The position numbers were made by a program, and so were the translations under genes. Positions 1 to 42,846 of a stretch of 64,000 bases of DNA are shown piece by piece. The stretch is taken from NCBI RefSeq assembly GCF_001677475.2, contig NZ_CP015229.1; one strand, written 5' to 3'. Source of the stretch: Escherichia coli (GTDB taxonomy: Bacteria > Pseudomonadota > Gammaproteobacteria > Enterobacterales > Enterobacteriaceae). Each line of letters starts with the position of its first letter. Within the stretch, counting starts at the first letter, position 1. The notes beneath the pieces are model-generated. The model worked only from the letters and a program-made list of their open reading frames with translations. It was not told where the DNA came from and searched no databases.

Positions 1-1
1 C

Positions 2-469
2 ACGCTGACGGTTTCTAACCTGTACGGTATGGTCACCGGGATGGCGGAAGATCTGCAGAGTCTGGTCGGCGGAACGGTGGTCCGGCGTAAGGTTTACGCC
101 CGTTTTCTGGATGCGGTGAACTTCGTCAACGGAAACAGTGACGCCGATCCGGAGCAGGAGGTGATCAGCCGCTGGCGCATTGAGCAGTGCAGCGAACTGA
201 GCGCGGTGAGTGCCTCTTTTGTACTGTCCACGCCGACGGAAACGGACGGCGCTGTTTTTCCGGGACGTATCATGCTGGCCAACACCTGCACCTGGACCTA
301 TCGCGGCGATGAGTGCGGTTATCACGGTCCGGCGGTCGCGGATGAATATGACCAGCCAACGTCCGATATCACGAAGGATAAATGCAGCAAATGCCTGAGC
401 GGTTGTAAGTACCGCAATAACGTCGGCAACTTTGGCGGCTTCCTTTCCATTAACAAACTTTCGCAGTAA
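2..469 (+). CDS. L: Lambda-like minor tail protein L, C-terminal part (N-terminus lies upstream of the window)
   Basis: Frame open from base 2; translation (TLTVSNLYGMVTGMAED...FLSINKLSQ) matches the phage lambda L C-terminus as recalled; followed by K, I, J in lambda order. Confidence 0.8.
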   Translation, partial: TLTVSNLYGMVTGMAEDLQSLVGGTVVRRKVYARFLDAVNFVNGNSDADPEQEVISRWRIEQCSELSAVSASFVLSTPTETDGAVFPGRIMLANTCTWTYRGDECGYHGPAVADEYDQPTSDITKDKCSKCLSGCKYRNNVGNFGGFLSINKLSQ

Positions 470-542
470 ATCCCATGTATTAGACGTCAACTAGTTTTGC
501 CGACTCGCGCCAACTATACTGGCCGCACCCTTCAGGGCGACA

Positions 543-1298
543 TCAAGTCGCGCTTGTTACTGCCTTCGCTGTCTTTTTCCTGTAGCTTTCCCCTTTCAGT
601 TCGAACATATATCCGTGATGGAGCAGCCTGTCTGCCGCAGCCACCGCCATAGTCTCATCCACGAAGATGCTGCCCCACATGCTGAACGGATGGTTACTGG
701 TTATCACCAGGCTCCCACGTTCATAGCGATGCGCTATTAACTCGAACAGCACACCCGTTTCGGCACTATCGCGTTTGACATAGCCAAGATCATCCACCAC
801 TATCACCCGGTAGCGATCCAGTTTCAGTAGCAGCTCATTCAGTTTCAACTGAGCTCTGGCTTTACGTAGTTCCTGCAACAGCTCTCCTGCGCTGTAGAAC
901 CGGGCCCGGTAGCCCTGACCTACTACGCCATCCACGATCGCTGCCGCCAGATGGCTTTTCCCCAACCCGCTGGCTCCGAACAGCAGAACGTTTTCTCCTG
1001 CATCAACCCAGTCTGTCGTTTCACAGAGTTGCCGGAACTGAGCTCCATTCAGTTCCGGCACCTGACTGAAGTCGTATTCGCTCAGCGTTTTGGCAACTGG
1101 CAACCGGGCCTCCTTTTTATAACGACGCAGTTTTTCACTCTCGCGCCACAGGAGTTCTTCATTGCATAGCGTCAGAAGATAGCGCGATGGTGTCCAGCCT
1201 TCTGCCAGCGCTCGTTTTTCCAGAGCGTGCCATTCAGCTCCAACTCGTGTCAGGCGTAGTTTACGCAGGCTATGTTCAAGGTGATGGATATTGCTCAC
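543..1298 (-). CDS. istB: IS21-family transposition helper ATPase IstB
   Basis: 251 aa ORF with Walker A motif GASGLGKSH and typical IstB length; start overlaps istA stop. Confidence 0.9.
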   Translation of the reverse strand: MSNIHHLEHSLRKLRLTRVGAEWHALEKRALAEGWTPSRYLLTLCNEELLWRESEKLRRYKKEARLPVAKTLSEYDFSQVPELNGAQFRQLCETTDWVDAGENVLLFGASGLGKSHLAAAIVDGVVGQGYRARFYSAGELLQELRKARAQLKLNELLLKLDRYRVIVVDDLGYVKRDSAETGVLFELIAHRYERGSLVITSNHPFSMWGSIFVDETMAVAAADRLLHHGYMFELKGESYRKKTAKAVTSAT

Positions 1299-2794
1299 TG
1301 CGAACCTCCCTTGCCACGCAGTAGTTGCTCATAACTGCTCAGGTTATGCTGTATCACATTGACTACCGGCAACGCCTTTTCTTTTATACCCAGGAAGCGC
1401 ATCAGCCGGTGCAGATCCACGTTTCCCGGGGTATTCAGCATCTGCTCCATACCTTTTGCCACGACTGAGATATCGTCGTATCCTGCAGCCAGTTTCAGGG
1501 CATGTACCATCAGCCTTCCTGCCATATCGGGCTCCAGATGATTACATAAGCGACGCCACAGCCTCCGCCATTCATCGTCCGGCAGGATGTCATTTCTCAG
1601 CGTTGCATGGCAGAACGCACCGGGCTTTTTTGCCAGACTGTCGATCACATGTCGGAAGTCGATACGACGGGCCCGCGTCTTCCCTTTTTCTGGTCTGACG
1701 CGAGGGCAGCTCATGACCTCGCTGCTGCCAACGTAACAGCTCAGACGATCGTCCCATAACCTGACCCGTAACAGTTGACCTACAAGCCGGGAAGGTACGC
1801 TGTAGACGACGTGCTTCACATTGATGGTACTGCTGCGACTAACCCTCACAGTCAGCTCATCATAGTCAGCACTGCGACGAAGCGGCAGCGGTTTCAGATG
1901 AAGACGTTCTTCCTTGACCAGATCCTGATTGTTACGGTTGTGCCGCATAACCTGCTGAGTGATGAAGGCCTGATATTCTTCTATGGTGCTGAAGTCGTTA
2001 CTGCCCCGCAGTATCAGCGCCTGACAGATACGCCTTTTCAGATGTCCGTGGGCACTTTCAACCGAGCCATTTTCGTGGCCCCGACCGGCATTATTGTGTA
2101 CGCCCTGCATTCCGTAGTGCTGACAGAGAGTAGCATAACGCTCAGTCAGCTCGCGGCGTCCATCTTCGCCCTGTTGTTTCCATGCTGCCCTCAGGCTGTC
2201 CGTTTTATGTTCTACCGGCACTCCGCCCAGTTGTCCGAGGGCTTCCTGCAGGCCTTCAGCCAGAGCAGAGAAGCTCTCACCACCCAGAACAACCCGCATC
2301 CAGCTCCAGTGGCTCCATTCCAGACGGAAGTGATACAACTTATGCGCCAACAACTTACCGGCGATGGTGACAACTACACCTTTCAGTTCAGTAAAGTCCG
2401 ACAGGCCTCGCAGGCCGGGCTGATGTTGCTGGCGGAACATGACCTCCTGCTCTGTACCATACTGTAGTTTCCATTCGCGAACCCGCCGTTGCATTGTTCT
2501 TCGAAGGCTGTTGGGGTACTGGCCGGGATATTTATCCTGTAGCATCTCCAGTAGAGTTGTTGGTGTCAGAGCCGGCCTCTCTTTCAACAGAGGAACAAGC
2601 ATGCTGTCCCACACAGCTTCCAGAGGATCTTTGCGTGTGCGCCAGTGCCGAACACTGTTTTTTGCCCACTCTCCTTTTTCGATCCGACGACCAGAACGGA
2701 CTGAGATACCAGCCTTCATGGCCGAGATATGCTGAGTTATACCTTTCTTACGCTGAGTCATATAGTAACTGACCTGAGAAGTATTGAGCGTCAC
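1295..2794 (-). CDS. istA: IS21-family transposase IstA
   Basis: 499 aa ORF immediately upstream of and coupled to istB; N-terminal HTH-like region and integrase-like core; family assignment by architecture. Confidence 0.85.
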   Translation of the reverse strand: MTLNTSQVSYYMTQRKKGITQHISAMKAGISVRSGRRIEKGEWAKNSVRHWRTRKDPLEAVWDSMLVPLLKERPALTPTTLLEMLQDKYPGQYPNSLRRTMQRRVREWKLQYGTEQEVMFRQQHQPGLRGLSDFTELKGVVVTIAGKLLAHKLYHFRLEWSHWSWMRVVLGGESFSALAEGLQEALGQLGGVPVEHKTDSLRAAWKQQGEDGRRELTERYATLCQHYGMQGVHNNAGRGHENGSVESAHGHLKRRICQALILRGSNDFSTIEEYQAFITQQVMRHNRNNQDLVKEERLHLKPLPLRRSADYDELTVRVSRSSTINVKHVVYSVPSRLVGQLLRVRLWDDRLSCYVGSSEVMSCPRVRPEKGKTRARRIDFRHVIDSLAKKPGAFCHATLRNDILPDDEWRRLWRRLCNHLEPDMAGRLMVHALKLAAGYDDISVVAKGMEQMLNTPGNVDLHRLMRFLGIKEKALPVVNVIQHNLSSYEQLLRGKGGSQ

Positions 2795-2890
2795 GCCATT
2801 TCCTGTTGGATCATGTAAATGACACTCAGGTTACAAAACCGGCCAGAATAATCGGCGCCAGGCGGACTGAGTTATTGTCGTCTCATACCC

Positions 2891-3634
2891 ATGACACAGA
2901 CTGAATCAGCGATTCTGGCGCACGCCCGGCGGTGTTCGCCTGCGGAATCGTGCGGCTTCGTGGTGAGAACGCCGGAGGGAGACAGGTATCTTCCCTGCGT
3001 GAATATCTCCGGTGAGCCGGAGGCGTATTTCCGGATGTCGCCGGAGGACTGGCTGCGGGCAGAAATGCAGGGTGAGATTGTGGCGCTGGTCCACAGCCAC
3101 CCCGGTGGACTGCCCTGGCTGAGTGAGGCCGACAGGCGGCTGCAGGTGCAGAGTGATTTGCCGTGGTGGCTGGTCTGCCGGGGGGCGATTCACAAGTTCC
3201 GCTGTGTGCCACATCTTACCGGGCGACGCTTTGAGTACGGGGTGACGGACTGTTACACGCTGTTCCGGGATGCTTACCATCTGGCGGGGATTGAGATGCC
3301 GGATTTTCATCGCGGGGATGACTGGTGGCGTAACGGCCAGAATCTCTATCTGGATAATCTGGAGGCCACAGGGCTGTATCAGGTGCCGTTGTCATCAGCA
3401 CAACCGGGCGATGTGCTGCTGTGCTGTTTTGGTTCATCGGTGCCGAATCATGCCGCCATTTACTGCGGCGACGGCGAGCTGCTGCACCATATTCCTGAAC
3501 AACTGAGCAAACGAGAGAGGTATACCGACAAATGGCAGCGACGCACACACTCCCTCTGGCGTCACCGGGCATGGCACGCATCTGCCTTTACGGGGATTTA
3601 CAACGATTTGGCCGCCGCATCGACCTTCGTGTGA
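2891..3634 (+). CDS. K: Lambda-like tail assembly protein K (JAB/MPN metalloprotease-like plus NlpC/P60-like domains)
   Basis: 247 aa ORF; JAMM motif HSHx7Sx2D (HSHPGGLPWLSEAD); C-terminus matches lambda K as recalled; overlaps I by about 100 nt as in lambda; alternative internal start at 3035 corresponds to the classical 199-aa lambda K. Confidence 0.85.
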   Translation: MTQTESAILAHARRCSPAESCGFVVRTPEGDRYLPCVNISGEPEAYFRMSPEDWLRAEMQGEIVALVHSHPGGLPWLSEADRRLQVQSDLPWWLVCRGAIHKFRCVPHLTGRRFEYGVTDCYTLFRDAYHLAGIEMPDFHRGDDWWRNGQNLYLDNLEATGLYQVPLSSAQPGDVLLCCFGSSVPNHAAIYCGDGELLHHIPEQLSKRERYTDKWQRRTHSLWRHRAWHASAFTGIYNDLAAASTFV

Positions 3635-4203
3635 AAACGGGGGCCGAAGCCATCCGGGCGCTGGTCATGCAGATCCCGGCGTTTCGTCAGAAACTGAGCG
3701 ACGGCTGGTATCAGGTACGGATTGCCGGGCGGGACGTCAGCACGTCCGGGTTAACGGCGCAGTTACATGAGACTCTGCCTGATGGCGCTGTGATTCATAT
3801 TGTTCCCAGAGTCGCCGGGGCCAAGTCAGGTGGCGTATTCCAGATTGTCCTGGGGGCTGCCGCCATTGCCGGATCATTCTTTACTGCCGGAGCCACCCTT
3901 GCAGCATGGGGGGCAGCCATTGGGGCCGGTGGTATGACCGGTATCCTGTTTTCTCTCGGTGCCAGTATGGTACTTGGTGGTGTGGCGCAGATGCTGGCAC
4001 CGAAAGCCAGAACTCCCCGTACACAGACAACGGATAACGGTAAGCAGAACACCTATTTCTCCTCACTGGATAACATGGTTGCCCAGGGCAATGTTCTGCC
4101 TGTTCTGTACGGTGAAATGCGCGTGGGGTCGCGGGTGGCTTCTCAGGAGATCAGCACGGCAGACGAGGGGGACGGTGGTCAGGTTGTGGTGATTGGTCGC
4201 TGA
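3532..4203 (+). CDS. I: Lambda-like tail assembly protein I
   Basis: 223 aa ORF, same length and position as lambda I; Gly/Ala-rich hydrophobic C-terminal half. Confidence 0.85.
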   Translation: MAATHTLPLASPGMARICLYGDLQRFGRRIDLRVKTGAEAIRALVMQIPAFRQKLSDGWYQVRIAGRDVSTSGLTAQLHETLPDGAVIHIVPRVAGAKSGGVFQIVLGAAAIAGSFFTAGATLAAWGAAIGAGGMTGILFSLGASMVLGGVAQMLAPKARTPRTQTTDNGKQNTYFSSLDNMVAQGNVLPVLYGEMRVGSRVASQEISTADEGDGGQVVVIGR

Positions 4204-4221
4204 TGCAAAATGTTTTATGTG

Positions 4222-4249
4222 AAACCGCCTGCGGGCGGTTTTGTCGTTT
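4222..4249 (+). terminator. Terminator-like hairpin between tail genes I and J
   Basis: Perfect 8-bp stem AAACCGCC/GGCGGTTT with 4-nt loop, followed by a T-rich run. Confidence 0.4.
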
Positions 4250-4263
4250 ATGGAGCGTGAGGA

Positions 4264-7200
4264 ATGGGTAAAGGCAGCAGTAAGGGGCATACCCCGCGCG
4301 AAGCGAAGGATAACCTGAAGTCCACGCAGTTGCTGAGTGTGATCGATGCCATCAGCGAAGGGCCGGTTGAAGGTCCGGTGGATGGATTAAAAAGCGTGCT
4401 GCTGAACAGTACGCCGGTGCTGGACAGTGAGGGGAATACCAATATCTCCGGTGTCACGGTGGTGTTCCGTGCAGGTGAGCAGGAGCAGACACCGCCGGAG
4501 GGATTTGAATCCTCCGGCTCCGAGACGGTGCTGGGTACGGAAGTGAAGTACGACACGCCGATTACCCGGACCATCACGTCTGCAAACATCGACCGTCTGC
4601 GCTTTACCTTCGGTGTGCAGGCACTGGTGGAAACCACCTCAAAGGGGGACCGGAATCCGTCGGAAGTCCGCCTGCTGGTTCAGATACAACGTAACGGTGG
4701 CTGGGTGACGGAAAAAGACATCACCATTAAGGGAAAAACCACCTCACAGTATCTGGCCTCGGTGGTGGTGGGTAACCTGCCGCCGCGCCCGTTCAGTATC
4801 CGGATGCGCAGGATGACGCCGGACAGCACTACAGACCAGCTGCAGAACAAAACGCTCTGGTCGTCATACACCGAAATCATCGATGTGAAACAGGGCTACC
4901 CGAACACGGCACTGGTCGGTGTACAGGTGGACTCGGAGCAGTTCGGCAGCCAGCAGGTGAGTCGTAATTATCATCTTCGCGGGCGCATTCTGCAGGTGCC
5001 GTCGAACTATAACCCGCAGACGCGGCAATACAGCAGTATCTGGGACGGAACGTTTAAACCGGCATACAGCAACAACATGGCCTGGTGTCTGTGGGATATG
5101 CTGACCCATCCGCGCTACGGCATGGGGAAACGTCTTGGTGCGGCGGATGTGGATAAATGGGCGCTGTATGTCATCGGCCAGTACTGCGACCAGTCAGTGC
5201 CGGACGGCTTTGGCGGCACGGAGCCGCGCATCACCTGTAATGCTTACCTGACAACACAGCGTAAGGCGTGGGATGTGCTCAGTGATTTCTGCTCGGCGAT
5301 GCGCTGTATGCCGGTATGGAACGGGCAGACGCTGACGTTCGTGCAGGACCGGCCGTCGGATAAGGTGTGGACCTATAACCGCAGTAATGTGGTGATGCCG
5401 GATGACGGCGCGCCGTTCCGCTACAGCTTCAGCGCCCTGAAGGACCGCCATAATGCCGTTGAGGTGAACTGGATTGACCCGGACAACGGCTGGGAGACGG
5501 CAACAGAGCTTGTGGAGGACACGCAGGCCATTGCCCGTTACGGTCGTAACGTCACGAAGATGGATGCCTTTGGCTGTACCAGCCGGGGGCAGGCGCACCG
5601 CGCCGGGCTGTGGCTGATTAAAACGGAACTGCTGGAAACGCAGACCGTGGACTTCAGCGTGGGTGCCGAAGGGCTTCGCCATGTGCCGGGCGATATCATT
5701 GAAATCTGCGATGATGACTATGCGGGTATCAGCATCGGTGGTCGCGTGCTGGCGGTGAACAGCCAGACCCGGACGCTGACGCTCGACCGTGAAATCACGC
5801 TGCCATCCTCCGGCACCACTCTGATAAGCCTGGTTGACGGAAATGGCAATCCGGTCAGCGTGGAGGTTCAGTCCGTCACCGACGGCATGAAGGTGAAAGT
5901 GAGCCGTGTTCCTGACGGCGTTGCAGAATACAGCGTGTGGGGGCTGAAGCTGCCGACGCTGCGCCAGCGCCTGTTCCGCTGCGTGAGTATCCGTGAGAAC
6001 GACGACGGCACGTATGCCATCACTGCCGTGCAGCATGTACCGGAAAAAGAAGCCATCGTGGATAACGGGGCGCACTTTGACGGCGACCAGAGCGGCACGG
6101 TGAATGGTGTCACGCCGCCAGCGGTGCAGCACCTTACCGCCGAAGTCACCGCAGACAGCGGGGAGTATCAGGTACTGGCCCGCTGGGACACGCCGAAGGT
6201 GGTGAAGGGCGTGAGCTTCATGCTTCGCCTGACCGTGGCAGCGGACGACGGCAGTGAGCGGCTGGTCAGCACAGCCCGGACGACGGAAACCACATACCGC
6301 TTCAGACAACTGGCGCTGGGGCGTTATATGCTGACGGTCCGGGCGGTAAATGCCCGGGGGCAGCAGGGTGATCCGGCGTCGGTATCGTTCCGGATTGCGG
6401 CACCGGTAGCGCCTGTCACTATTGAACTGATACCGGGGTATTTTCAGATAACGGCGGTCCCGAAACTGGCTGTATATGACCCGACGGTACAGTTTGAGTT
6501 CTGGTTATCGGAAAAGCGGATTATCGATATCAGGCAGGTTGAAACCACAGCCCGCTATCTTGGTACGGCGCTGTACTGGATAGCCTCCGGACCGGATATT
6601 GAGCCGGGCAATAATTATTATTTTTACGTTCGCAGTGTGAATACCGTCGGCAAATCGGCATTTGTGGAGGCTGTTGGCCAGCCGGGTAACGATGCTGAGA
6701 AATATCTCCATTTTTTTGAAGGGAAAATAAACAGCACCCTGCTGGGGCAGGAGCTGAACGATCGTATTAATGCCTCGGCATTGCGCAGTGAAGTTGAGCA
6801 ACTGGAGGATGAGATCAATCAGCAGATAGAGAGTGATATTGCTGAAGTGACCCAAAAAATCGGGGAGACAGAAAACAGCCTCACGCAGCTGGTTGCGAAA
6901 AAAAATGATGAGCTGTCACTGGGTATATCACAGGTGAGCCAGAGAGTGGATAACGTCAGCAGCGAACTCACGCAGACGGTCAGTCAGAGTAATGAGGAGA
7001 ATGCACGCCAGATAGCGCAGGTTCGCCAGTATGTGGATCAAAAAAGCAGTGAAATCATGACGACAACGGACCAGAAGCTGGGAGATCAGGAGGCCACCAT
7101 CCAGCAGATACAAAAGGTTCAGACGGACACCAGTAATAACCTGAACAGTATGTGGGCCGTGAAACTGCAGCAGATGCAGGATGGTCGCCTTTATATTGCG

Positions 7201-7965
7201 GGTATCGGTGCCGGTATTGAGAACACCCCCGACGGCATGCAGAGTCAGGTGCTGCTGGCGGCAGACAGGATTGCGATGATTAATCCTGCAAATGGCAACA
7301 CAAAACCGATGTTTGTTGGTCAGGGTGATCAGATATTCATGAATGAAGTGTTCCTGAAATATCTGACGGCTCCCACCATTACCAGCGGCGGTAATCCTCC
7401 TGCATTTTCCCTGACACCGGACGGAAAGCTGACCGCTAAAAATGCCGATATCAGCGGTAACGTGAATGCGAACTCCGGGACGCTCAACAACGTCACGATA
7501 AATGAGAACTGTCAGATTAAGGGGAAACTGTCAGCCAACCAGATTGAAGGCGATATTGTCAAAACGGTCAGCAAGTCTTTCCCCCGCACGAACAGTTATG
7601 CCAGTGGCACCATCACGGTAAGAATCAGTGATGATCAGAAATTTGACCGGCAGGTCATGATACCGCCAGTGTTGTTCCGTGGTGGTAAGCATGAGAATTT
7701 CAACAGTAATAACCAACAGTCATACTGGTATTCAACCTGCCGGTTAAGAGTGACCCGCAATGGTCAGGAGATTTTTAATCAGTCCACGACGGATGCTCAG
7801 GGCGTATTTTCCTCAGTTATAGATATGCCTGCCGGACAGGGGGCGCTGACACTGACATTCACCGTATCTTCATCAGGAGCGAATAACTGGACACCAACAA
7901 CCAGTATCAGCGATCTGCTGGTTGTGGTGATGAAGAAATCCACAGCAGGTATCAGTATCAGCTGA
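4264..7965 (+). CDS. J: Lambda-like tail tip / host specificity protein J (1233 aa) with divergent C-terminal receptor-binding region
   Basis: N-terminal about 800 aa match lambda J as recalled ([21 protein letters not shown]...); C-terminal third diverges and is longer. Confidence 0.9.
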
Positions 7966-7982
7966 ATTTTATAACCCATAAC

Positions 7983-8008
7983 GGGCGTCAGAAATGACGC
8001 CTTTTTTA
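7983..8008 (+). terminator. Rho-independent terminator after J
   Basis: Stem GGCGTCA/TGACGCC with GAAA loop followed by TTTTTT. Confidence 0.6.
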
Positions 8009-8031
8009 TTGCAGAAAAGCGAGAGGTAATT

Positions 8032-8631
8032 ATGCGTAAACTTTATGCCGCCATTTTGTCCGCAGCCATTTGTCTGGCCTTATCCGGTGCGCCTGCATGG
8101 GCGTCTGAACATCAGTCCACGCTGAGCGCGGGGTATCTTCATGTCTCGACGAACGTTCCCGGCAGCGATGATCTGAACGGGATTAACGTGAAATACCGTT
8201 ATGAGTTTACGGACACACTGGGTATGGTGACGTCATTCAGCTATGCAGGAGACAAGAATCGCCAGCTGACCCGTTACAGCGATACCCGCTGGCATGAAGA
8301 TTCCGTTCGTAACCGCTGGTTCAGCGTAATGGCGGGGCCGTCTGTGCGCGTGAATGAATGGTTCAGCGCGTATGCGATGGCGGGTGTGGCTTACAGCCGT
8401 GTGTCGACTTTCTCCGGGGATTATCTCCGCGTAACTGACAATAAGGGGAAAACGCACGATGTGCTGACCGGAAGTGATGACGGTCGCCACAGCAACACGT
8501 CTCTGGCGTGGGGAGCTGGCGTGCAGTTTAACCCGACCGAATCCGTGGCTATTGATATTGCTTATGAAGGCTCCGGCAGTGGCGACTGGCGCACTGACGG
8601 TTTCATCGTGGGTGTCGGTTATAAGTTCTGA
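8032..8631 (+). CDS. lom: Lom-like outer membrane protein (Ail/Lom/PagC family)
   Basis: 199 aa ORF with signal peptide (MRKLYAAILSAAICLALSGAPAWA) and terminal aromatic residue (YKF); lambda lom position downstream of J. Confidence 0.85.
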   Translation: MRKLYAAILSAAICLALSGAPAWASEHQSTLSAGYLHVSTNVPGSDDLNGINVKYRYEFTDTLGMVTSFSYAGDKNRQLTRYSDTRWHEDSVRNRWFSVMAGPSVRVNEWFSAYAMAGVAYSRVSTFSGDYLRVTDNKGKTHDVLTGSDDGRHSNTSLAWGAGVQFNPTESVAIDIAYEGSGSGDWRTDGFIVGVGYKF

Positions 8632-8657
8632 TTAGCCAGGTAACACAGTGTTATGAC

Positions 8658-8686
8658 AGCCCGCCGGGTTCAGGCGGGCTTTTTTG
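8658..8686 (+). terminator. Rho-independent terminator after lom
   Basis: Stem AGCCCGCC/GGCGGGCT followed by TTTTT. Confidence 0.65.
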
Positions 8687-8696
8687 TGGGGTGAAT

Positions 8697-10787
8697 ATGG
8701 CAGTAAAGATTTCAGGTGTCCTGAAGGACGGAGCGGGTGAGCCTGTCGTAAACTGTGCGATTGAATTGCGAGCCAGAAGAACCAGTCCGACAGTTGTGGT
8801 TAATATTGTGGCAACCTGTCTTACGGGAAGTGATGGCGGGTATACTATTAATGCTGAGCCGGGATTTTATGATGTATTTTTGTCCCGCTCAGGGCATCCT
8901 CCTGTAAAGGCGGGGGAAATTTATGTTGCACCGACAGATGAGCCGGATACGCTGAATGCTTTTCTGGATGCACCAAAGGAGGGTGATTTACGCCCTGAGG
9001 TAATGAAGCGTTTTGAGGAAATGGTAAATACCGTTGTTCGCTTGTCTGAGCAGGTGGTCAGTGACAGGGAGAGAGCAGAAACAGCTGCTGATGATGCAAT
9101 CAATGCAGCAACATCTGCGGCGGTTAGTAAGGATGAGGCAGAAGAGCTAAAAAATCAGACACAGCAGAGCGCCGAAGCTGCAGCCGGAAACGCACAGCAG
9201 ACGGCACAGGATGTGACGACAACCGCAACGGCCCGTGATGATGCGGAACGTTTTGCGGGTGAGGCAGAAAACAGCGCACAGTCATCAGGCACAGCGCGGG
9301 ACGAATCAGTCGATGCCGCCGAACGCGCCCGCCTTTATCATAATGCCGCATCATCAGCAGCGACCAGTTCAGAACTGTCGGCAAATGCGGCGCTGGGGCA
9401 CAAAAACAGTGCCGCCGAATACGCCCGACAGGCTAAAGCCAGCCAGGATGCAGGTGCAGACAATGCGCAGGAAGCGAAACAGTACAGGGATGAGGCGCAG
9501 CAGATAGTTGATGACCTGAATGCAACAAATGCCTCCACGACAGAAAAAGGTCTGGTGCAACTCTGTAGTGATACGGACAACGACAGCGAGGAACTGGCTG
9601 CCACGCCAAAGGCTGTCAAAGACGTCATGGACGAGGCGAAAACAAAAGCGCCACTGGACAGTCCGGCCTTCACCGGCACCCCAACCACCCCAACCCCACC
9701 GGATGATGCCGCCGGTCTGGAAGCAGCGAACGCAGCGTTTGTGCGCAAACTGCTTGCTGCGCTGGTTGGCTCATCGCCGGAAGTTCTGGACACCCTGAAC
9801 GAGCTGGCAGCGGCGCTGGGCAATGACCCGAACTTTGCGACGACAATCACAAACGCGCTGGCAGGCAAACAACCGCTTAATGACGTCTTAACGGCAATCA
9901 GCGCACTGACGCAACGGGCAGATAATCTTCTGTACTTCAATACAGACGGGAATGCCTCACTGTCTCTGCTGTCAGAGAAGGGCCGCGCATTACTGGCGCA
10001 TGACACGGCTGAAGCCATGCGCACGGAGCTTGAGCTGAACGCGGCTGCGACGATGGAACCCCAGAGTGATATCCGTGACCGCACACCGGGCAGGCTGGCC
10101 CTGTCCGGGATGTATGGGTTTGGACAGGCATTCACCAGCACTGACGCTCTGGCGTTTGAGGGGCTGTCTGATTTCGTTGAGTGGTTGAAGAAAGTCACGC
10201 CGGGGCGGTATGCGGTCAGTATTACAGACTCCTCGCAACTGCTTACCGGTACCACGCAATTTAACGGCATTATTGATGTGATGTGGTCACCGTACGCCAA
10301 CAGTGAATCCGACACAGTCCGCAAATTTAAAACCCTGATGTGCTACAACCAGTATTATCAGGGTGAACACTGTATTCACTATATGCAGTACCGGTACAAC
10401 GACAGCGATAACAGCTGGAACATGTCATCGCGGGTAGTTGTATACGACGGAGATTCACTGGCGTACCTGCTGTCCAGGATGGCGGGCTCAGGCTCATATT
10501 ATAAATACCCGGCCGTTGGTGTGCCGATTATGGCGGCATATCAGGGGGAGAGTTTTGGTGCAGATGCGTCTCTGGGGCTCGGTGATATTGTGCCGGGTTC
10601 CCGTCTTGGCCCTCTGGCTATGAGTGCACGGGTTAGCGATACAGGGACATACGCATCCTCACCGCAGGTTGTGATTGGCGGTGCTGGTGAATACAACTTC
10701 CCCGGTCGTTACACGGCGCTTTCGGGGACCCGCATTAGTCACGATACAACGCGTGGCTATATCGGTCTTTTTGTACGCATTGAGTAA
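8697..10787 (+). CDS. stf: Prophage side tail fibre protein (Stf-like)
   Basis: About 696 aa ORF (ATG at 8697; the ORF track starts at GTG 8691); Ala/Gln/Glu-rich fibrous central region; followed by tfa. Confidence 0.8.
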   Translation: MAVKISGVLKDGAGEPVVNCAIELRARRTSPTVVVNIVATCLTGSDGGYTINAEPGFYDVFLSRSGHPPVKAGEIYVAPTDEPDTLNAFLDAPKEGDLRPEVMKRFEEMVNTVVRLSEQVVSDRERAETAADDAINAATSAAVSKDEAEELKNQTQQSAEAAAGNAQQTAQDVTTTATARDDAERFAGEAENSAQSSGTARDESVDAAERARLYHNAASSAATSSELSANAALGHKNSAAEYARQAKASQDAGADNAQEAKQYRDEAQQIVDDLNATNASTTEKGLVQLCSDTDNDSEELAATPKAVKDVMDEAKTKAPLDSPAFTGTPTTPTPPDDAAGLEAANAAFVRKLLAALVGSSPEVLDTLNELAAALGNDPNFATTITNALAGKQPLNDVLTAISALTQRADNLLYFNTDGNASLSLLSEKGRALLAHDTAEAMRTELELNAAATMEPQSDIRDRTPGRLALSGMYGFGQAFTSTDALAFEGLSDFVEWLKKVTPGRYAVSITDSSQLLTGTTQFNGIIDVMWSPYANSESDTVRKFKTLMCYNQYYQGEHCIHYMQYRYNDSDNSWNMSSRVVVYDGDSLAYLLSRMAGSGSYYKYPAVGVPIMAAYQGESFGADASLGLGDIVPGSRLGPLAMSARVSDTGTYASSPQVVIGGAGEYNFPGRYTALSGTRISHDTTRGYIGLFVRIE

Positions 10788-10801
10788 TAAGGAAATAAGA
10801 C

Positions 10802-11380
10802 ATGAAAATCAGAGCGGTGAAAGGCATCAGAAACGCGCATTATCTTGAAAATGGTGCGGTTGACTGCGAGGTGTTATTTGAAGGTGAAACGGAGTTCGTC
10901 CTGTATACCGCCATACAGGATGATATGGCCCCGACAGGCCAGCATGTCTGGCAGGAGCTGCAAAGCGGGAAATGGGGCGAAATCGCCCCGTTCACCGTCA
11001 CGCCGGAACTTATTGCAGCGGCAAAGGATGCCAAAAGGCGGGAAATTGAGGCATGGCGCGACAGTCAGGAAAACGTTGAGTTTATTTTCACGTTTGATGG
11101 CCGTCGTTTTGATGGCGGAAAAACCTCGCAGTCACGCCTTGCCCCCGTGGTTGCAACAGCACAGGCCGGACTGCTTCCGGAGGGATTTTTCTGGACTGAT
11201 GCGGATAATAATAACGTCGTACTGACCAGGGAGAAACTTATTGCGCTGAACGATGCCATGATGGTGGCCATGGTGGCGGAGGGCTTTAAAATCCACGAAC
11301 GTCAGCGGGAGATGAAAGAGGAACTGAGCAGCCTGGAGGATTTACGCTCAATCAGAGCGATGGCGATTAGCAGTAATTAG
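10802..11380 (+). CDS. tfa: Tail fibre assembly protein (Tfa-like chaperone)
   Basis: 192 aa ORF immediately downstream of stf; Tfa-like length and position. Confidence 0.8.
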   Translation: MKIRAVKGIRNAHYLENGAVDCEVLFEGETEFVLYTAIQDDMAPTGQHVWQELQSGKWGEIAPFTVTPELIAAAKDAKRREIEAWRDSQENVEFIFTFDGRRFDGGKTSQSRLAPVVATAQAGLLPEGFFWTDADNNNVVLTREKLIALNDAMMVAMVAEGFKIHERQREMKEELSSLEDLRSIRAMAISSN

Positions 11381-11470
11381 CGGTCAATTCTGGGCTCTTT
11401 GTCTGCTCCTTCACCGTCTGGAATTGTGTGTCAATTAGCCTGGAATTAATCGGGTTCAGATTGTTTTGTT

Positions 11471-11513
11471 GTGGCAAAATTGGGACAAAAGGGGCAAAAA
11501 TGGGGCAAAAAAA
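11471..11513. repeat. Four tandem approximately 10-bp GGGGCAAAA-like units (phased A-tracts)
   Basis: GTGGCAAAAT / TGGGACAAAA / GGGGCAAAAA / TGGGGCAAAAAAA read directly from the sequence, helically phased. Confidence 0.7.
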
Positions 11514-11805
11514 GAGTAGGTTATTGTGGTTTATTGTAGTTGCTGATATGTTTTAATTCATTGAAAATGAAATAAAATACTTATGAGTCAGATGGTTGCA
11601 ATTTTTGTCCTTACTTGTTCAGGTTGTATTGTTCTTTCTTACTAATTTCTTGATTTTGCGACATTTAAAAGCGACTCAATTCGTTATATGGCATCAGAAG
11701 AGTATGCGTCATGCCGGAATGCCCAGCATAAGAAATCTGATATAAAAACAGTGGCGTGTATGGTACGGATTAGAGGGGAAAATGTCAGCACATTTGCGAA
11801 ATGAA

Positions 11806-11836
11806 TCAAAAAGCCCGCAGCAATGTGCGGGCGTTA
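11806..11836 (-). terminator. Rho-independent terminator downstream of uspF
   Basis: On the minus strand: stem GCCCGCA/TGCGGGC followed by TTTTTGATTC, directly after the uspF stop. Confidence 0.6.
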
Positions 11837-11839
11837 GTG

Positions 11840-12355
<516 letters not shown>

Positions 12356-13913: not shown

Positions 13914-16900
13914 TTAATCGGTGTTGCTTTTTTCCGCTTTTCCGGCCATTTGTGCCAGGAAGTCATAGCGTTTTTGCAAATCAGCTGCGGCATCTTTCCA
14001 TAACTGTTCTGCCACTTCTGGCTGCTGCGAATTCAGACGACGGAAACGCTGCTCGTGAAGTAACGTTTCTTCCAGTGCTTCTGACGGCGGGCGTGAATCC
14101 AGCGCCAGCGGCAGTTTGCCTTCATCGGCACGACGCGGATCAAAGCGATATAGCGGCCAGAAGCCGGTAGCAGTGAGTTGGCGCATCTGGTCGTGACTGA
14201 GTGCCAGATCGTAACCATGCTCTTCACACGGGCTATAAGCGATGATCAGCGATGGCCCCGGATACGCTTCCGCTTCCTGAATCGCTTTCACCGTCTGGTT
14301 GAGCTGCGCGCCGAGAGAAATCTGCGCCACATAAACATGACCGTACATCATCATACTGACGCCAAGATCTTTACGCGCTTTACGTTTGCCGTGCTCGCCG
14401 AACTTAGTTACTGCACCCAGCGGTGTCGCTTTCGACGCCTGACCACCGGTGTTGGAATAGCATTGCGTATCCAGCACCAGAATGTTGATGTTTTCCGTCA
14501 AACTCAATACATGATCCAGACCGCCAAAGCCGATATCGTAAGCCCAGCCATCACCACCAATCAGCCAGATTGATTTTTCCACCAGTGCATCTGCGTCACG
14601 TAGCAGTTCATGTGCTTCGGCAACATCGTTGAGTTGCTGGCGTAAAGCTGCAACCTGCTCACGACGAACCTCTGGCGTAGCGTCTGATTTCAACGCCGTC
14701 AGTAATTCCGTCGGGATTTTATCGGCAAATTGATCCAGCAGACGAAGCACGCGGACACGGTGTTGATCGACCGTCAGGCGGAAACCAAGGCCAAATTCGG
14801 CGTTATCTTCAAACAGCGAGTTCGCCCATGCCGGCCCACGACCGTTGGCATCGGTGGTATACGGTGTAGAGGGCAGGTTACCGCCATAAATTGAAGAACA
14901 GCCGGTGGCGTTAGCGATCAACATCCGGTCGCCATAGAGCTGAGTCAGCAATTTAATATACGGCGTCTCGCCACAACCGGAGCAAGCACCTGAATATTCA
15001 AACAGCGGTGTAATCAGCTGCGATGTACGAATATCAATACGTTCCAGTTTGCTACGGTCGATTTCTGGCAGGTTGAGGAAGAAATCGTAATTGATTTTCT
15101 CTTCTTCGACATGTTCCAGGCGCGACATCATATTGATGGCTTTAATCTCTGGATTCTGACGGTCTTTCGCCGGGCAAACTTCGACGCACAGGTTACAACC
15201 GGTGCAATCTTCCGGAGCCACCTGCAAGACATATTTCTGCCCGCGCATATCACGCGATTTCACATCCAGCGAATGCAGGCTGGCAGGGGCGTTTTCCATC
15301 GCTTCAGGCGGTACCACTTTTGCGCGAATAGCTGAGTGTGGGCAAGCGGCGACGCAGTGGTTACATTGGGTACAGAGTTCCTCTTTCCAGATGGGGATCT
15401 CTTCGGCGATATTGCGTTTTTCCCAGCGCGTGGTGCCCATCGGCCAGGTGCCGTCTGGCGGCAGCGCCGAAACGGGGAGGGCATCACCAAGCCCGGCGAG
15501 CATCGCAGCGGTTACGGTTTTCACGAAATCAGGGGCGGCATCGGAAACCACTGGCGGTCGATTGGCGCTGTGCGGATTTACCGGTTGCAACGGAACTTCT
15601 TCTACGGATTCACGCGCCAGCGCCAGAGCCTGCCAGTTGCGCTCCACCAGATCCTGACCTTTGCTACTGTAACTTTTGGCAATCGCACCCTGCAATTCTG
15701 CGAGGGCGCTATCGCCAGGCAGAATTTGCGTCAGATGGAAAAAAGCCATCTGCATGACGGTATTAATACGGGCCGCCAGGCCACATTCGCGGGCGATTTT
15801 CGCTGCGTTAATCACATAGAAGCGCGCTTTTTTCTGGTTTAGCACGGCCTGAACTTCCTGCGGCAAGCGCGACCACACTTCATCTGCGCTGTACGGCGTG
15901 TTGAGCAGGAAAATGCCGCCAGGTTTTAAACGCTCAGCCATCTGATATTTATCGATAAACTGCAACTGGTGGCAGCCAACAAAATCAGCCTGGGAAATGA
16001 GATAAGCGGAACGAATCGGCTGTTCGCTCACGCGAAGGTGAGAAACCGTCAGGCCGCCCGCCTTTTTGGAGTCGTAAACAAAATAGCCCTGTGCGTACCA
16101 CGGCGTGGAATTACCGATAATCTTGATATTGTTTTTGGTCGCGGAAACGCTGCCATCACTACCAAGGCCATAAAACAAGGCTTCCAGTTTCGCCGAGTTT
16201 GGCAGGGTGTTTTCCGGCAACGGCAGTGACAGATTGGTCACATCATCGTAAATACCAACCGTAAAGCGCGCTTTCGGTTTAGCCGCGTTGAGCTCGGCAA
16301 ATACCGCCAGTACACAGTCCGGGCCAAATTCTTTGGATGAAAGACCATAGCGCCCACCAATGACACGGGGCAGGATTTCACGCTCGCCATTATTAAAAGC
16401 TTCTGCCAGTGCGGTCATCACATCCAGATAGAGCGGTTCTGCCTGGGCACCAGGTTCTTTGGTTCTGTCCAGTACCGCCACGCTGCGTACGGATCCCGGC
16501 AGAGCTTGTAGCAAGTGTTTGGCGGAGAAGGGACGGTACAGGCGAACTTTCAGCACGCCAACTTTTTCGCCACGGGTTAGCAATTCATCAACCACTTCTT
16601 CACAGGTGCCAATGGCAGAGCCCATCAGGATAATCACCCGTTCCGCTTGCGGATGCCCGTAATATTCAAACGGCTGATACTGACGACCTGTCGCGGCAGA
16701 GAAATCATTCATCGCCTGTTCAACATGGTCATAGACCGCGTTGTACCATGGGTTGGTGGCTTCGCGAGACTGGAAATAAGTGTCAGGATTGGCGGACGTA
16801 CCGCGGATCACCGGATGTTCCGGGTTGAGTGCCCGGGCGCGATGAGCATCAATTTCGGCCTGCGGCATGAGATCAAGAATCGTGTCATCGGCCAGCGGGA

Positions 16901-25690: not shown

Positions 25691-25719
25691 AAAAAACGGC
25701 ACCTGGTGCCGTTTTTTTA
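25691..25719. terminator. Bidirectional rho-independent terminator between convergent feaB and tynA
   Basis: AAAACGGCACC-T-GGTGCCGTTTT flanked by A-run and T-run. Confidence 0.8.
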
Positions 25720-42808: not shown

Positions 42809-42820
42809 CGAATATACAAA

Positions 42821-42846
42821 AGGGAAAGATGCATTTCCCTTTTTTT
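42821..42846 (+). terminator. Rho-independent terminator after ydbC
   Basis: Stem AGGGAAA/TTTCCCT followed by TTTTTT. Confidence 0.65.

Follow-up and report, generated by a model that had tools for sequence, protein, structure and literature searches.

The window, by which we mean the whole stretch of Escherichia coli DNA analysed here (64,000 nucleotides), contains the end of a lambdoid prophage, adjoining ompN, ydbK-like and sit genes. In the tail region the list of open reading frames places tail gene K at 2891-3634, tail tip assembly gene I at 3532..4203 (223 residues, stop codon TGA at 4201-4203), gene J for the central tail fibre or host specificity protein at 4264..7965 (1233 residues, ATG at 4264) and a lom-like frame at 8032-8631, all on the plus strand. 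K, I and J are 96-97% identical to those of lambda, 434, phage 21 and many E. coli phages, and the matching phages carry annotations of K and I as tail tip assembly proteins, of J as tip attachment protein J, and of Lom. Taken singly, the I protein shares 96.7-97.2% of its residues with I of lambda, 434 and PhiR30_1 (annotated there as tail tip assembly protein I), while the N-terminal 200 residues of J match proteins annotated as J or tail fibre at 98-100% identity. I and J are separated by a 60-nt intercistronic spacer (4204..4263, plus strand), which aligns with lambda 15445-15504 and carries the Shine-Dalgarno sequence of J, GGAG at 4252..4255 (plus strand), 8 nt before the ATG; a ribosome_binding_site feature is annotated at the same position in the phage 21 and 434 records. 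Elsewhere in the window, outside the prophage tail region, two symmetric hairpins (25691-25717 and 42818-42843) with A-runs and T-runs on both sides resemble bidirectional terminators.

The spacer is dominated by a hairpin at 4222..4241 on the plus strand, with the stem formed by 4222-4229 (AAACCGCC) and 4234-4241 (GGCGGTTT) around the loop TGCG (4230-4233). The stem is perfect, with five G-C and three A-T pairs over 8 bp, arranged as a CCGCC/GGCGG core extended by A-U pairs. It runs into a T-rich tract, TTTTGTCGTTT (4239..4249, plus strand), which is a U-tract in the RNA and the first three T of which pair with the AAA at the stem base. The element can be parsed in two ways, either as a 5-bp GC core followed by TTTTGTCGTTT or as an 8-bp stem with TGTCGTTT behind it. 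The T-score of the tail is 3.81 if counting starts at the GC core, and the U-tract UUUUGUCGUUU is imperfect, being broken after four U. An AU-rich single-stranded stretch, AAAAUGUUUUAUGUG, lies 5' of the hairpin, and the J Shine-Dalgarno sequence lies downstream of the expected termination point. Sequence features by which intrinsic terminators are recognised are found here, namely a GC-rich stem-loop, a U-rich tract directly 3' of it, the same orientation as the operon and a position outside coding sequence.

The fold is stable by every measure that we applied. On its own the hairpin reaches -13.1 kcal/mol, and the 60-nt spacer as a whole folds with -21 kcal/mol (z = -3.17), a stability equalled by none of 200 shuffles (0/200). 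Pair probabilities, computed in contexts from 60 up to 700 nt, span 0.83-1.0; the lowest belongs to the outermost A-U pair, and the other seven stay at or above 0.96. A reading made earlier from the sequence only had proposed a stable 8-bp hairpin with a tetraloop and a T-run between I and J, and this is indeed what lies there. Two of its details need adjustment: the T-run is real but shares its first three T with the 8-bp stem, and it ends 14 nt, rather than 15 bp, before the J ATG. Reading the element as a terminator of the minus strand was considered and rejected, with a weaker fold (-12 kcal/mol, z = -2.33), a poor tail (UUUCACAUAAAAC) and versions in HK97-type and Stx-type phages that have no T-run on that strand.

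A hairpin of this kind is more than chance would place at the site. We scanned for perfect stems with dG <= -10 kcal/mol and a decaying T-score >= 3.2, which returned five sites on the plus strand of the whole 64 kb. Three of them fall within positions 1-12000, where 100 dinucleotide-preserving shuffles gave 0.06 +/- 0.24, and each lies between genes: before J (4222-4241), after J (7983..8002, GGGCGTCA-GAAA-TGACGCCT followed by T6) and after the lom-like frame (8658..8680), so that J and lom are each bracketed by hairpins within the late operon. The latter two, both on the plus strand, were also found by a consensus terminator scan of the window, which did not list the I-J hairpin, probably because its greedy G-T stem extension (11 pairs, 4219-4244) uses up the T-run. 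Terminator prediction, which the sequence-only reading had proposed as a check, is therefore split, the consensus scan missing the hairpin and our shuffle-controlled scan detecting it. Scores of the d'Aubenton-Carafa type, computed with modern energies and so serving for ranking only, are +18.6 for the I-J hairpin (from the GC core), +27.6 for the hairpin after J, +36.4 for the one after lom and +37.1 for HK97-type spacers. Given a U-tract that is interrupted behind its fourth U and a GC core of no more than 5 pairs, the predicted termination efficiency is modest.

The hairpin is its own sole match when the 64-kb window is searched at <=3 mismatches. A dispersed repeat of the REP type is ruled out by this single copy together with the genome-wide copies, which among the matches listed sit at I-J prophage junctions. 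A permissive Rfam scan of 3000-5500 gave noise only; its STnc130 match (RF02084), which we rejected, lies on the minus strand with 19.8 bits versus a 55-bit gathering threshold (E = 8.5), and covers only model positions 106-126, that is, the terminator hairpin of that model.

Comparison with the I-J region of lambda, another check named in the sequence-only reading, leaves no doubt about what the element is. The spacer differs from lambda 15445-15504 by a single base (G versus A at window 4246, in the tail), and the lambda hairpin, at lambda 15463-15482, has the same stem and loop within a 60-nt spacer like that of the window. The element is thus the already-known lambda I-J hairpin, falls into the familiar class of intrinsic terminators within lambdoid late operons, and is not new. 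It is also very common: of 5,426 complete E. coli genomes, 3,599 contain an 86-bp segment around the hairpin, with 6,390 copies in all, and those among the matches listed are without exception flanked by genes annotated as tail assembly and J. The phage 21 record (OL657228.1) labels the stretch matching window ~4220-4244 "terminator" (15649-15673); apart from a second such feature just after J, no other terminator is annotated anywhere in its structural operon. The I-J feature cites no experiment, whereas tR' of the same record cites a PMID. The lambda RefSeq and 434 records leave the I-J hairpin unannotated, and a literature search for 3'-end mapping or a named terminator at this site found nothing specific. 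The value as a discovery is small, for a sequence that has been in the lambda genome since its sequencing, is found in two of every three complete E. coli genomes and bears one curated "terminator" label. Annotation pipelines could nevertheless label the I-J spacer hairpin consistently, which lambda RefSeq does not.

To follow the element across phages we gathered 255 I-J junctions from phage records and IMG/VR contigs. The 28 distinct lambda-type spacers of 60 nt vary in 20 columns, which are found in the loop (TGCG, TCCG, TCAG), in the tail (GTCG, ATCG, GTCA, GTTG), in the AU-rich 5' part and around the ribosome-binding site. Within these 28 close variants only one of the 16 stem columns is variable compared with 19 of the 44 others (Fisher p = 0.011), and the sole stem change, A to G, retains a G-U pair. 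Between families the stem sequence does change, with pairing kept. The lambda family has AAACCGCC/GGCGGTTT; the class with lipoprotein-like morons (accessory genes) in 476-609-nt spacers has GAGCCGCC-TTTT-GGCGGCTT; Gifsy-2 has ACCGCC-ATTAC-GGCGGT followed by TTTGTTATTTATGGAGCC; HK97-type phages have GGCCACC-TTCG-GGTGGCT followed by T6-8 and ATGGGCGC; and Stx-type phages have either ACAGGCACCC-TCCG-GGGTGCCTGT or ACAGGCATCC-TCCG-GGATGCCTGT, which amounts to GCACCC/GGGTGC versus GCATCC/GGATGC, with two Stx-type loci showing a C-A intermediate between both stem states. Every spacer family carries a T-run on the sense strand (T6-8 in the HK97 type, TGTTGTTTTTG in the Stx type, TTTTGTTATTT in Gifsy-2).

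When 35 distinct variants are aligned on the loop, an anchoring which favours structure and may mix homologous with analogous hairpins, 99% of the cells pair, versus 80% in shuffles and 36-58% with the partners slid. Both sides change in five of the six pairs of this alignment, and the covariation score is 0.566 versus 0.179. The compensations within families are independent of the loop-anchored alignment, and since the HK97-type spacer shares TTTATGG(A/G)GCG with lambda, the two probably contain a homologous element. A hairpin stands upstream of J in 83 of 84 lambda-type, 81 of 81 HK97-type and 73 of 86 Stx-type loci, at 15-22 nt from J in the lambda and HK97 types and at 41-103 nt in the Stx type. 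Phage ES18 and a Mannheimia phage, both J-encoding, have a 9-nt I-J gap and no hairpin, and 13 Stx-type loci of the SodC type have none within 150 nt of J, so the element is dispensable. The sequence-only reading would have given up the hairpin for want of folding stability, or if all related functional phages lacked it with no effect on J transcript levels; on the first count stability is found, and on the second the hairpin is conserved with compensatory changes in lambda, 434, 21, HK97-like phages, Stx phages and Gifsy-2.

The surroundings of the hairpin differ between phages far more than the hairpin itself. Across the collected junctions the length of the spacer is bimodal or multimodal, with minimal forms of 51-60 nt and expanded forms of 235-850 nt. 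Loci with lambda-type J have either 59-60 nt (67 loci) or 476-478 and 609 nt (16 loci), those with HK97-type J have 51-56 nt (74 loci) or 500-750 nt (4 loci), and those with Stx-type J have no short form at all but 234-260 nt (49 loci), 341-342 nt (12) or 848-852 nt (11). Expanded spacers hold accessory genes. In the 476-609-nt spacers a plus-strand frame of ~112 residues with a lipobox (MNKTILFCTIIALTGC...), in AT-rich DNA and with no Pfam match, ends just before the hairpin (for example at 1085-1433 of locus L033 and 1083-1433 of locus L009, both with lambda-type J). A Cu/Zn superoxide dismutase (PF00080, E = 4e-32) is encoded on the minus strand of the I-J spacer at 840-1550 of locus L143 and in 11-13 similar Stx-type loci, and the long HK97-type spacers have small minus-strand frames. 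By the published description, morons bring a promoter and a terminator of their own and are active in repressed prophages (PMC3594210). Within this slot the hairpin occupies the edge next to J and, in the 476-609-nt spacers, lies directly 3' of the lipobox frame, where a moron's own terminator would be expected. The window itself has the minimal 60-nt spacer, with no extra gene relative to its moron-bearing relatives, and a search of the plus strand from 1484 to 11265 returned no promoter-like site. As a slot for a lipoprotein-like frame, Cu/Zn SodC and small frames, bounded on its J side by a hairpin whose stem changes in a compensatory manner, the I-J junction may aid in finding prophage cargo.

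Several other candidates for the contents of this slot were dropped. Gifsy-2 sodCI does not belong to the I-J junction, as we had considered, but lies between M and L, and Gifsy-2 has the same hairpin in a 71-nt I-J spacer. Its M-L junction (909-2071 of locus L256) holds a lom homologue in addition to sodCI, so that phages differ in which of the junctions between tail genes they use as moron slots. The sRNAs AgvB and AsxR were rejected as contents of the long Stx-type spacers, as they map to the pR' moron site (PMC4104026), and so were the Pas sRNAs, the preprint on which makes no link to I-J; an Rfam scan of five Stx-type spacers gave no family. Two further features of the Stx-type loci are worth recording. 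A tandem heptamer, CAGACAT, is found 20-45 nt upstream of J, just ahead of its ribosome-binding site (L005, L006, L008 and others; for example 355-385 of L006). Prophages have from about 2 to 4 copies of it, and the 14-nt differences in the length of the spacer are explained by this variation. Right after the I stop, L004, L006, L007 and L008 have a second hairpin following an A-run (AAAAAATCCCGCAG...CTGCGGGA; for example 148-180 of L006), which would be a terminator of the minus strand, so that convergent terminator-like hairpins would surround 100-200 nt of unannotated sequence.

What is the role of the hairpin then? We favour, with moderate confidence, an intrinsic (Rho-independent) terminator of the lambda-family I-J type that acts as an insulator and is read through by Q-modified polymerase. 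Behind an ordinary RNA polymerase the CCGCC/GGCGG core and its A-U pairs would form and, together with the U-tract UUUUGUCGUUU, would cause release at around 4243-4249, short of the Shine-Dalgarno sequence of J. Placed at the J-proximal edge of the slot, such a terminator would keep transcripts that do not come from pR', whether moron-derived or spurious, from reaching J, lom and stf, and these genes would thereby stay silent in the prophage. In lytic growth the Q-modified polymerase coming from pR' would pass the hairpin and J would still be made. The late genes of lambda are transcribed from pR' as one transcript of ~27 kb under Q antitermination (10.1101/2023.05.14.540688; PMC7547250), and therefore a modest terminator at I-J should be mostly bypassed during lytic growth. 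As a secondary effect, the hairpin retained in late mRNA by read-through could block 3'-to-5' exonucleases. Since the window has neither a moron in the slot nor a promoter-like site upstream on the plus strand, there is no obvious transcript here to insulate against. In the virulent T1-like phage Shfl1 (790-868 of locus L091) and in a Webervirus (786-874 of locus L093) a canonical terminator at I/J is followed by a -10-like box (TATAAT and TACAAT, respectively), a sequence arrangement which suggests that J starts a separate transcription unit in these phages.

The same terminator-like anatomy would also suit an attenuator of the lytic phase, at which a fraction of the late transcripts stops even in the presence of Q, so that less mRNA is made of J, lom and stf than of the tail genes before them. 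Hairpins flank J at either end, and the terminator with its -10-like box in the T1-like phage and the Webervirus suggests a real transcription-unit boundary at I/J. Q-modified polymerase, however, resists intrinsic terminators, and Sampson and colleagues reportedly concluded in 1988 that relative expression of the lambda late genes is set mainly by translation initiation. The products gpI and gpK are themselves of low abundance, which leaves no evident reason to reduce J below them, and the late genes are described as a single Q-antiterminated mRNA of ~27 kb (10.1101/2023.05.14.540688). We regard attenuation in the lytic phase as unlikely. Of the sequence-only proposal of a partial terminator or RNA stability element tuning J, the terminator-type structure is supported, while tuning relative to K and I is left unsupported, given Q antitermination, the variable distance to J and the phages without a hairpin. 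About equally unlikely is a role mainly in RNA stability or processing, with the hairpin as a barrier to 3'-to-5' exonucleases, protecting the upstream tail message after cleavage in J, or as a 5' protection of a processed J message, and with termination incidental. Such a role would operate whether or not Q suppresses termination, and it agrees with the high stability of the hairpin in long contexts, with its retention by compensatory change and with the AU-rich single-stranded AAAAUGUUUUAUGUG in front of it. It would not need a U-tract, though, and yet no spacer family has lost the T-run of the sense strand, which in the HK97 type is a canonical T6-8. Still less probable, in our opinion, is a relic or recombination joint, a sequence without a role today that either once terminated a moron since lost or marks a conserved boundary between modules. 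The spacer is indeed a mosaic joint, at which similarity to Stx phages ends within I and resumes at the J start, and morons do fill the I-J slot in relatives; against this, the constraint on the stem columns and the compensatory substitutions between families argue for continuing selection on the structure.

Control of J at the level of translation could act in either of two ways: a lower helix (4210-4219 with 4249-4258) could hide the Shine-Dalgarno sequence, or a 22-codon mini-ORF could couple the ribosomes of I to J while melting the hairpin. The mini-ORF (4203..4271, plus strand) has an ATG overlapping the I stop as TGATG, crosses the hairpin and reaches its stop, TAA, 5 nt beyond the ATG of J. 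Of 67 lambda-type spacers, 65 keep the frame open up to an end at -3 to +20 nt relative to the start of J, frameshifted spacers of 59 nt among them, and the other two break it at the second codon. The minimum free energy structure of the spacer does pair the GGAG region, and the lower helix is 94.6% paired across the 28 variants. It consists mostly of G-U and A-U pairs, however, and we rejected it as a Shine-Dalgarno-occluding element because its retention in close variants is accompanied by a covariation not above that of shuffles. As for the mini-ORF, an open frame of 22 codons is expected by chance about a third of the time, by a rough estimate, and the peptide shows no conservation. In HK97-type spacers all three frames are closed by stops directly behind I, and neither feature is general; the variation in hairpin-to-J distance (15-103 nt between families) likewise speaks against any role linked to the ribosome-binding site of J. 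The mini-ORF is probably fortuitous, and translational control of J looks quite improbable. We would give slightly less weight again to a translation-sensitive attenuator, in which I ribosomes would reinitiate at TGATG, translate the mini-ORF, melt the terminator and hand over to J. If true, this would tie both transcription and translation of J, with no part played by Q, to how the tail genes before it are translated; the minimum free energy and centroid folds of the spacer show no alternative (antiterminator) structure.

The I-J hairpin offers a clean natural test case for internal terminators in Q-antiterminated operons, for which we found no measurement at this site in the literature. Among known systems, the stabilising hairpins of the REP or malE-malF type are likewise stable and intercistronic and could block 3' exonucleases, but the window hairpin is unlike them in being single-copy, in having a U-tract and in belonging to no dispersed repeat family. 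Moron terminators, such as those flanking lom and that of HK97 gene 15, are also sense-strand hairpins within a Q-antiterminated late operon at the downstream edge of an accessory site; the window and lambda differ from them in that the slot is empty, with no extra gene and no promoter-like site, and the hairpin stands alone. With its broken U-tract (UUUUGUCGUUU) and a score of +18.6 versus +37.1, on a scale that serves for ranking only, the window hairpin is expected to be weaker than that of HK97-type phages, while a GC-rich stem, a tetraloop and a 3' U-tract are common to it, to the HK97-type hairpin and to the canonical intrinsic terminators of E. coli.
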